63,211 bases of DNA, filler included, from Dirinaria sp. TL-2023a (GCA_051941275.1; 18 parts of 18 records of this genome joined end to end with filler, not necessarily neighbours in it), one strand, 5' to 3'; shown: positions 32,514 through 33,916, counted from the whole stretch's first letter. A program made the numbers and translations. Notes: a model not told the origin generated them from the letters alone.

Positions 32514-33916
32514 ATGACACACAAACTCCCTCCTAATCTCCTGGCCCTCTTCGCCGCCCGCCCGGCACTCCGTTACCTCCCCCCTAGCGATCATGCCCCT
32601 GAACAGCGCAAAACGAACAACATATCTGGCGTGGCGCAATATCTCCCTGCTTTGGCCGAGTATGACGAGATCCCATACACTCCCACAGAGAGCTGGCTGC
32701 AGAGGAAAGATAGGAAGAAACAGGAGAAGAAAGAGAACATCGAGAACATGTTGAGGGACGCAAGACCGCCGGACGAGGATCCTCAAGTTCGAGGCGATGC
32801 CTTCAAGACGCTGTTCATTGCACGATTGAGCTACGAAGCTACGGAGAAGGACTTGGAGAGAGAGTTCGGTCGGTTTGGGCCTATCGAGAGGGTATAGCTC
32901 GAGTTCACCAAGTCAATGGATTTATACTAACCAATCTATAACCCAGATACGGATTGTTACTAAGACGCACGAGAATGCGACCGAAAGTGTGTCCAAAAAG
33001 AAGAAAAAGCCTCACAAGGGCTACGCGTTCATAGTGTATGAACGTGAAAAGGACATGAAAGGTATATTACCCCTTCCTCTATCCACTAACGCGGAGAAGG
33101 CGCTCTCGCAGTCTCCCTTCCACTCAAAGTATGCGAGAACATGACTGACACTTGAGCTCCTTCTCCTTTCGTGTAGCCGCTTACAAAGAGACCGATGGTA
33201 TTCGTATCAAAGACCGGCGCGTACTCGTAGACGTGGAGCGCGGTCGTACCGTCAAAGGATGGAAGCCTCGTCGCCTTGGTGGCGGACTGGGTGGCCGAGG
33301 CTACACAAAAGGCCCAGCTGCCCGCCCAGGAGGCTTCGCTGCTCCCGCTGGACCTGGAGGCTATCAAGGCGGTTTTCGAGGCGGGTTCGGCGGACGAGGT
33401 GATCGCGGCGGCTTTCGAGGCGGCTTTAGAGGCGATAGAGGAGGCTTCGGCGGAAGAGGAGGCATCGGGTACCAAGGAGGGGGTGGTTTCGGCGGAAGAG
33501 GTGGGTATGGTGGCGGTGGCGGCTTTGGTAATGGCCCAGCACCTCCCCCCAATGCACCCTCTGGACCAGGTGGAGGTCGGGGAGGCTTTGGTGGCGGTGG
33601 CTATGGGGGTTCTCCAGGGGGGCCCATGAACGGATCCCCTGCCATGAATGGCACGGGCGGTGGGTATAGCGATGTGAGACGTGGTGGCTCATATGACGAC
33701 AGATCCTCTTACCGCGGCGGAAGCGGCGGTGGATATGGTGACAGTCGCTCAGGAAGCTTCACGGGCAGCAACCGTGAGCCGGTAAGGCCTCGCGATGGCG
33801 GTGGATATGACCGAGATCGCGATCGATATGGGGGAGGAAGCAGCCGTGATGACAGCCGAAAGCGATACCATGAGGGAGATGGCTACGACGATCCACGCAG
33901 CAAACGGAGATACTAG
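32514..33916 (+). CDS. SNP1: U1 snRNP 70 kDa protein
   Basis: [17 protein letters not shown]..., [68 protein letters not shown], then an RGG/RD tail. Introns 32892-32946 and 33062-33176. Confidence 0.96.

Follow-up and report, generated by a model that had tools for sequence, protein, structure and literature searches.

Intron 2 of the U1-70K gene in Dirinaria sp. TL-2023a (GCA_051941275.1) has an unusual anatomy which is conserved across lineages; it is removed whole in RNA, and every alternative way of processing it leads to a premature stop codon. The gene lies in a stretch of 63,211 nucleotides (nt), made of 18 parts joined with filler, which we call the window. We propose that intron 2 is a conserved regulatory intron that senses U1 small nuclear ribonucleoprotein (snRNP) and limits the output of U1-70K, and we put the probability of this reading at slightly above one half.

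Intron 2 (33062-33176, on the plus strand like all features described here) is 115 nt long and runs from GTATAT to TAG. Its outer donor GTATAT (33062-33067) has no G at +5, and its acceptor TAG (33174-33176) was read in the sequence and is the one used in RNA contigs. Between them lie an upstream branch-point motif CACTAAC (33084-33090, branch A at 33089), an inner acceptor CAG that ends at 33111 within CAGTC (33109-33113), an inner donor look-alike GTATGC (33129-33134), and a downstream branch-point motif GACTGAC (33143-33149). The branch A of the latter, at 33148, is 28 nt before the acceptor, and the look-alike is 19 nt before this A. Further AG dinucleotides end at 33096 and 33099. A first-pass annotation had proposed from the sequence only that the 17 nt between the inner acceptor and the inner donor (33112-33128) form a frameshifting "poison" micro-exon; all its coordinates were exact when the sequence was read directly.

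Translation by script gave a protein of 410 amino acids (aa) when intron 2 was removed as a whole. Inclusion of 17, 29, or 32 nt, the latter two from the AGs at 33099 and 33096, led each time to the same TAG at 33228-33230, 686 nt upstream of the normal stop, with products of 187, 191, and 192 aa, just as the first-pass annotation had claimed for the frameshift; the same TAG is also met in the shifted frame after the loss of 1 nt. Premature stops also followed when only the inner acceptor was used (178 aa), when only the inner donor was used (261 aa), and when the intron was fully retained (191 aa). The full parse of branch motif, AG, and donor appeared in 52 of 20,000 dinucleotide-preserving shuffles of the intron 2 interior, a rarity that is notable for one intron but not decisive, since the whole window had been scanned by the reader who found it. 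It is the comparative data across orthologous introns that raise the inner signals of the window above chance.

Orthologous loci were collected from metagenome contigs (80 loci) and genome contigs (one locus, L081), using an alignment of 20 full-length orthologues as the query, and introns lying after the E.E.DM[KR] motif and before VDVERGR were scored by script. One representative was kept per lineage (n = 27, or 28 for the branch motif and retention), and intron 1 of the same loci served as the control (n = 19). The outer donor of intron 2 had a G at +5 in one of 27 lineages, versus 14 of 19 intron-1 donors (Fisher test, p = 6e-7). Inside intron 2, a strong donor pentamer (GTAAG, GTATG, or GTGAG) was found in 16 of 27 lineages versus 3.3 expected from dinucleotide shuffles, and none of 200,000 simulations reached 16. 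The same pentamers were found in 3 of 19 control introns. A simpler count of complementarity to U1 over eight positions overlooked sites that lacked an exon-side match, and the pentamer test was used instead. Retention of intron 2 met an in-frame stop in all 28 lineages.

The inner look-alikes were conserved in detail in some clades. In one clade, TGGTAAG was the same in each of the 10 sequences, with flanks that varied. AAG directly followed by GTA (AAG/GTA) was found in all seven loci of Sordariomycete/Leotiomycete type, followed there by a second donor look-alike, and it was also found in L017, L025, and L035. Judging from these alignments, intron 2 carries a donor consensus that is conserved across species while the flanks diverge, which is the pattern of a pseudo-5ʹ splice site.

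The spacing of the signals was also unusual. The inner look-alike was usually located 14-20 nt before branch A, about half the smallest control distance, and the distance from the inner GT to branch A was 18-20 nt in ten lineages, including the window (19 nt). In the control introns, the real donor was at least 35 nt from branch A in 18 of 19 cases, and the 19th was a likely miscall. Because the inner GT is far nearer to branch A than the control donors are, the inner site is probably too close for ordinary use. Introns as short as 73-76 nt carried the inner donor. The downstream branch motif was ACTGAC/ACTAAC or GCTGAC/GCTAAC in 25 of 28 lineage representatives, with weaker variants in L011, L021, and L069 (GCTAAT, GCTAAA, and GCTGAC in introns of 33-57 nt), and the spacer between branch point and acceptor had a median of 27 nt, versus 15 nt in intron 1 (Mann-Whitney test, p = 1.4e-4). 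A second, upstream ACT[AG]AC motif was seen in the window, L012-L015, L007, L024, L029, L036, and L063; no AG was located between this motif and the inner donor in L024, L029, and L036. When use of the inner donor was considered across lineages, the extension lengths fell in all three classes modulo 3 (in frame in L024 and L035), with no signal beyond chance. Conservation of the internal splice signals in orthologues, which the first-pass annotation had set as its own check, was thus seen for non-random inner donors and for the weakness of the outer donor, but the donor of the 17-nt exon itself was not kept in nearby lineages.

The nearest relatives with DNA, L012-L015, have an intron 2 of 128 nt. 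Identity between the window and L012 was 68% in intron 2, versus 56% in intron 1 and 63-77% in exon pieces. Three blocks of intron 2 were conserved between the window and these relatives: the upstream branch motif, kept in L012-L015 as ACTGAC/ACTAAC; TCGCAGTCTCCCTTCCA, which spans the inner CAG and is identical in the window and L012-L014; and ACATGACTGACACT.GAGCTC. A long-range helix of 12 bp was predicted, in which 33093-33100 pair with 33159-33166 and 33102-33105 pair with 33154-33157. Its 5ʹ arm, GGAGAAGG.GCTC (33093-33105), contains the AGs that end at 33096 and 33099 and was obtained in both the minimum-free-energy and the centroid fold; its predicted 3ʹ arm, GAGC.CCTTCTCC, covers 33154-33166. 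An inner helix of 5 bp was predicted between CAGTC of the inner acceptor (33109-33113) and GACTG of the downstream branch motif (33143-33147). The fold of the window's intron 2 had a z of -3.25, and none of 200 shuffles was as stable. L012 and L014 were predicted to have the same architecture with different arm letters (z of -4.25 and -4.0), indicating compensatory change between two lineages. Enclosed by the predicted helix are the 17-nt stretch, with the inner acceptor before it and the inner donor look-alike after it, and also the downstream branch motif. In this model, it hides the AGs at 33096 and 33099, and, when formed, it would bring the upstream branch motif near the true acceptor.

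Transcripts were available as contigs of four RNA-seq runs from one lichen metatranscriptome sample, placed on 32450-34000. The contigs were 90-99% alike to the window and hence came from a relative, not from the same strain; the overall likeness of this relative is 95-97%. The joint 32891/32947, which shows removal of intron 1, was present in contigs of all four runs. The joint 33061/33177, which skips 115 nt with GT..AG ends, was present in three of the four, and the fourth had no cover there. Since contigs drop rare variants, they establish the productive form and nothing more. The junctions 33061/33112 and 33128/33177, which inclusion of the micro-exon would create, did not appear: the contigs of the three runs, which miss rare isoforms, contained only 33061/33177, and none of the contigs included any stretch of intron 2. 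Contigs from the related lichen fungus also had 3-nt insertions (TGG or GGC) at window positions 33507-33517, in the Gly-rich repeats of exon 3; these represent length polymorphism of its low-complexity tail.

A GT..AG intron at the same position and phase as intron 2 was scored in 38 of 81 loci, with lengths of 33-216 nt, and two further fungal loci, L050 and L051, which were among 12 that the script could not score, had an intron at this position by eye. In the animal-type locus L081 (AYKHADGKKIDG...), a phase-1 acceptor is located exactly before AYKHADG. Judging from these loci, the intron position is old and common to fungi and an animal-type U1-70K gene. L021 and L069, divergent fungal-like U1-70K genes, have a tiny intron of 33-35 nt at the same position and phase, so that the position is older than Pezizomycotina. 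The first-pass annotation had placed vertebrate intron 7 at this position; the acceptor of L081 shows that the position is shared with animals, and human intron 7 may lie there. L081 (1326-1429 and upstream) is an animal-type U1-70K exon with flanking introns in a contig filed under a Bacteroidota metagenome-assembled genome, and is probably eukaryotic contamination of a bacterial bin. About 85 nt upstream of its acceptor, an 8-nt piece is located between ttttgcag and gtaagaagt. In L050, of Leotiomycete type, an additional short intron (3858-3906) splits the VDV/ER.. motif in exon 3.

The identity of the gene was clear. Pfam analysis of exons 1 and 2 gave PF12220 U1snRNP70_N (E 3.6e-28) followed by one RNA recognition motif (RRM; PF00076 RRM_1). 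The best match in a protein search, with 79% identity over exon 1, was a Physcia stellaris "U1 small nuclear ribonucleoprotein", and the next-closest proteins were from numerous Pezizomycotina, lichen-forming species among them; this places the source of the window among the lichen-forming ascomycetes. The search gave 402 matches at E 1e-10 or better, of which the closest relatives were full-length proteins annotated as U1 snRNP 70K. The gene is therefore U1-70K (SNRNP70, Snp1), and the gene call, reading frames, and stop codons of the first-pass annotation were all correct by Pfam and script translation. Exon 1 (32514-32891) has 126 codons from the ATG at 32514 and encodes U1snRNP70_N and the start of RRM_1. 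Intron 1 (32892-32946; 55 nt, GTATAG..CAG) is absent from the RNA contigs. Exon 2 (32947-33061) encodes the RRM core and ends with KDMK plus a G, in phase 1. Exon 3 (33177-33916) encodes the remaining RRM and a Gly/Arg-rich tail, with the stop TAG at 33914-33916. The intron 1 donor of the window (GTATAG, 32892-32897) likewise has no G at +5, a base present in 14 of the 19 intron-1 donors of its relatives.

Since the gene is that of U1-70K itself, the obvious effector is the U1 snRNP, and the weak donor, look-alikes at fixed spacing, structured spacer, and second branch motif form the anatomy expected of a regulated intron. Intron 2 is a single intron at an old phase-1 position in the RRM and is removed whole when functional mRNA is made. 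Its conserved build in Pezizomycotina comprises a donor that lacks G at +5, one or two strong look-alikes 14-28 nt before a very good branch point, a long and often structured spacer, and, in several lineages including that of the window, an upstream second branch motif. In the mechanism that we propose, the choice between productive and unproductive processing would be made by U1 on the inner look-alike and by the folding state of the helix. Unproductive processing would mean that the intron is retained or that the inner acceptor, the inner donor, or the 17-nt exon is used; all these outcomes would end the frame inside the RRM, and unproductive processing would hold the output of U1-70K in check. 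We infer that U1 binds at the inner site, that one or another of these unproductive outcomes is used, that the feedback is negative, and that the unproductive RNA is lost by nonsense-mediated mRNA decay (NMD) or nuclear retention. The splicing feedback loop that the first-pass annotation had suggested for filamentous fungi gains support as far as a regulatory intron is concerned, but NMD and homology to the vertebrate loop are conjectural parts of it.

Several observations weigh against a U1-sensing regulatory intron. The intron is missing at this position in 31 of 81 loci, which comprise spliced metatranscripts, animal- or plant-like cDNAs, and long Dothideomycete-like genomic contigs; its absence from the last of these means that the device is dispensable. 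L004-L006, L009, L010, L042, L053, L056, L058, and L060 are Dothideomycete-like genomic contigs without introns 1 and 2 of U1-70K, and any regulation based on intron 2 has been lost in those fungi. The 27 lineages are related, so that the counts are not independent events, and the pentamer set was our own choice from the consensus of fungal donors. The strict inner pentamer is missing in 11 of 27 lineages, and L012-L015, the nearest relatives of the window, are among these: their inner donor is GTACAT, 11 nt from branch A, and the GTATGC of the window is not conserved. By the crude count of U1 complementarity, the inner site of the window scored 5 of 8 versus 6 of 8 for the outer donor. Outside the clade of the window, whole-intron folds were no better than shuffles (z near 0). 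Neither an alternative junction nor a retained-intron contig was present in the contigs of the one RNA sample, where rare forms are lost. A strong decoy beside a weak donor also does not alone predict negative feedback.

The first-pass reading itself, in which a 17-nt cassette exon stands between two mini-introns (33062-33111 and 33129-33176) and its inclusion causes a frameshift, NMD, and negative feedback on U1-70K, is in our judgment unlikely. All of its signals were at their places, the stop at 33228-33230 follows on inclusion, and the parse was rare in shuffles, as described above. L012-L014 have the upstream branch motif unchanged, as well as the CAG and the next 14 nt, and parses resembling a micro-exon with a length not divisible by three were found in L027 (8 nt), L063 (8 nt), and L012 (29 nt). 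The geometry of the second mini-intron is non-standard, however, with its GT 19 nt from branch A where 18 control introns have at least 35 nt, and the corresponding GT of L012-L015 is the still closer GTACAT. L024, L029, and L036 lack any AG from the upstream branch motif to the inner donor, and L007 and L035 would give in-frame pieces of 3 and 6 nt. In the window, the inner acceptor was predicted to be paired, and no inclusion contig was present in the one sample. As the stop would be located in the last exon, presumably only NMD of the long-3ʹ-untranslated-region type could act. The poison micro-exon stands with respect to its motifs and premature stop, but not with respect to conservation of its donor in L012-L015, and the geometry of its "intron B" is doubtful. 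The 17-nt cassette is unproven and is the weakest part of the system, being its least conserved outcome.

A second explanation is that the intron is removed constitutively, with the help of structure or in nested or recursive steps, and without regulation. The same mRNA would always result, and the extra signals would aid the removal of an over-long intron, the helix for instance by bringing branch point and acceptor closer together. The RNA contigs, which contain the canonical product alone, agree with this, as do the branch-to-acceptor helices and hairpins conserved with compensatory changes. The AAG/GTA of the seven Sordariomycete/Leotiomycete-type loci and of L017, L025, and L035 is as found at recursive sites, and stwintrons are described in Pezizomycotina (PMC12403724, PMC9024468). 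In the window, however, the inner AG and GT overlap by one G (AAAGTATGC) and do not stand side by side; stepwise removal would lose an exon base and shift the frame. A recursive splice site with an exon of zero length is thereby ruled out in the window. Constitutive aid would also leave unexplained both the persistently weak outer donor of 26 of the 27 lineages and the inner donor carried by introns of only 73-76 nt. We consider it improbable that this explanation accounts for the intron.

The inner sequences might instead serve another role, in binding of another RNA-binding protein, as a small intron-derived RNA, or as a DNA element, with their likeness to splice signals being incidental. 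Elements that resemble no splice signal do exist in these introns. A 17-nt block, TGGCCCTCAAGCTTGCC, is located deep in intron 2 of six of the seven Sordariomycete/Leotiomycete-type loci (L022, L028, L078, L041, L026, and L050) and contains the palindrome CAAGCTTG; in L079 the block has diverged, and its palindrome is another one. The conservation of TCGCAGTCTCCCTTCCA between the window and L012-L014 would also fit such a role. No Rfam family, however, matched positions 32000-34500 at E up to 1, and the recurrent elements are precisely donor- and branch-like with fixed spacing to the real branch point, so that we regard another role as very unlikely. In addition to the 17-nt block, a small GC-rich hairpin was observed right after ACTGACAA, in the branch-to-acceptor spacer, in L022, L028, L078, L041, L026, L079, and L050. 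Its stem letters differ among loci (CGCC/GGCG, CGCGC/GCGCG, CGC/GCG, and GCCCCC/GGGGGC), which suggests a conserved structure in the long spacer of the Sordariomycete/Leotiomycete-type loci.

That the inner signals of the window are neutral sequence in a longish intron is the least probable explanation, because the strong inner pentamer in 13% of shuffles of the window intron alone, the loss of the inner donor in the nearest relatives, and the canonical-only RNA stand against 16 of 27 lineages versus 3.3 expected, the weak-donor contrast, fixed spacing, helix covariation, and an intron 2 more conserved than intron 1.

Intron 2 also explains why many public fungal U1-70K models stop there. The end of exon 2 is present in 91 short models (no longer than 260 aa), and in 77 of them translation passes from KDM[KR] directly into intron 2, which confirms the position of the intron; of the other 14, nine were cut off in the normal frame, two ended at the exon boundary, and three had other tails. 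The intron-truncated models included NCBI and JGI entries from Trichoderma harzianum, Podospora anserina, Xylona heveae, Hyaloscypha, and Cryphonectria. Either annotation went wrong systematically in these 77 truncated models, or they point to an abundance of transcripts that retain the intron. Models P0150, P0168, and P0238, whose tails do not start with a read-through residue, found no placement on any fetched DNA and were uninformative. In many models, the tail read from the intron includes the DNA of TGGCCCTCAAGCTTGCC as WPSSLP, GPQACPS, or ALKLA, and in one Ilyonectria model it does so twice.

Regulation of the vertebrate gene by an NMD-coupled alternative exon in intron 7 (exon 7a), which the first-pass annotation had cited as known, was confirmed in PMC3798272. 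In human, mouse, and zebrafish SNRNP70, intact U1 snRNP on the cryptic donors A-C of intron 7 activates an upstream acceptor, and the exon 7a so created holds a premature stop, by which the mRNA is removed by NMD (PMC3798272; Roesel-Hillgaertner et al. 2013). The fungal intron resembles exon 7a and the related U1C cross-regulation, as far as these accounts go, in the gene family, in a regulated intron within the RRM-coding part, in the premature stop, and in an inner 3ʹ splice site that is followed downstream by inner cryptic 5ʹ splice sites. The animal-type intron in L081 has the same position and phase as the fungal one, and human intron 7 may correspond to it. The vertebrate intron differs in scale: by the same account it spans kilobases, of which about 0.8 kb is conserved, and its alternative acceptor is at +642, whereas the fungal introns are 57-216 nt. 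The fungal inner donor is also only 14-20 nt from the branch point, and hence it may be a non-spliceable decoy, not an exon end. We regard the fungal intron as analogous to the vertebrate loop; homology would be a further step.

In Arabidopsis, the sixth intron of U1-70K is retained in a transcript that would encode a truncated protein (PMC545797). The fungal case would share with this plant case a transcript that keeps one particular intron and a truncated product, and differs in that no inner donor look-alikes are reported in the corresponding passage of PMC545797. Splicing silencers that depend on U1 were described for the conserved pseudo-5ʹ splice sites of ENOX1/Enox, termed UCP-5ʹSS, in PMC13100119, and RNAs whose 5ʹ splice-site motifs are intact were described as being retained in the nucleus by U1-70K and ZFC3H1 in PMC9074902. 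As presented there, these elements are like the fungal one, as we propose it, in being short, conserved, intronic donor look-alikes that are unspliced and act via U1. They differ in that they concern animal genes other than U1-70K. The fungal element is located in the U1-70K gene itself, and it would therefore close a feedback loop.

Intron 2 also has some likeness to the [D1,2] stwintrons as portrayed in PMC12403724 and PMC9024468, as a nested-looking intron of a filamentous ascomycete that reads G/GT...AG/TATGC in the window. This reading resembles a donor split between the first and second base. The parse through the AG at 33128-33129, however, loses base 33061, shifts the frame, and gives a product of 181 aa; since it removes one coding base, it cannot be the productive route, and the window is not a member of this class. 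The genes of U11-48K and U11/U12-65K, proteins of the minor spliceosome, are regulated in animals and plants by tandem repeats of U12-type donors. There, an snRNP protein gene is controlled by its own snRNP on look-alikes inside the gene, and the tandem look-alikes have a counterpart in the Sordariomycete/Leotiomycete-type loci. No description of splicing control of fungal U1-70K was found in a literature search, the coverage of which left out most subscription journals. What appears to be new here is the vertebrate gene and logic in a miniature, differently arranged fungal form.

The U1-sensing regulatory intron can be extended to a broader scenario, which we offer as a tentative possibility when taken as a whole. 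An ancient U1-sensing module would be shared by fungi and animals, and perhaps plants, by common ancestry. It would consist of a non-spliceable landing site for U1, fixed about 19 nt before the branch point. U1 bound there would block or stall U2 assembly, or would tag the pre-mRNA, which splices slowly, for decay in the nucleus. The helix of lichen fungi would act as a switch between two branch points that depends on folding and possibly on temperature.

For vertebrate U1-70K, it is documented that unproductive splicing keeps a core spliceosome protein in homeostasis, and retention of an intron is reported for the plant gene. If our reading is true, the fungal intron would be a compact system of 57-216 nt, simpler than the kilobase vertebrate intron, for the effects of U1 on the choice of splice site and branch point, and it would combine fixed geometry with a weak donor, joined in some clades by a helix that covaries. 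It would also bear on whether the feedback predates the split between fungi and animals.

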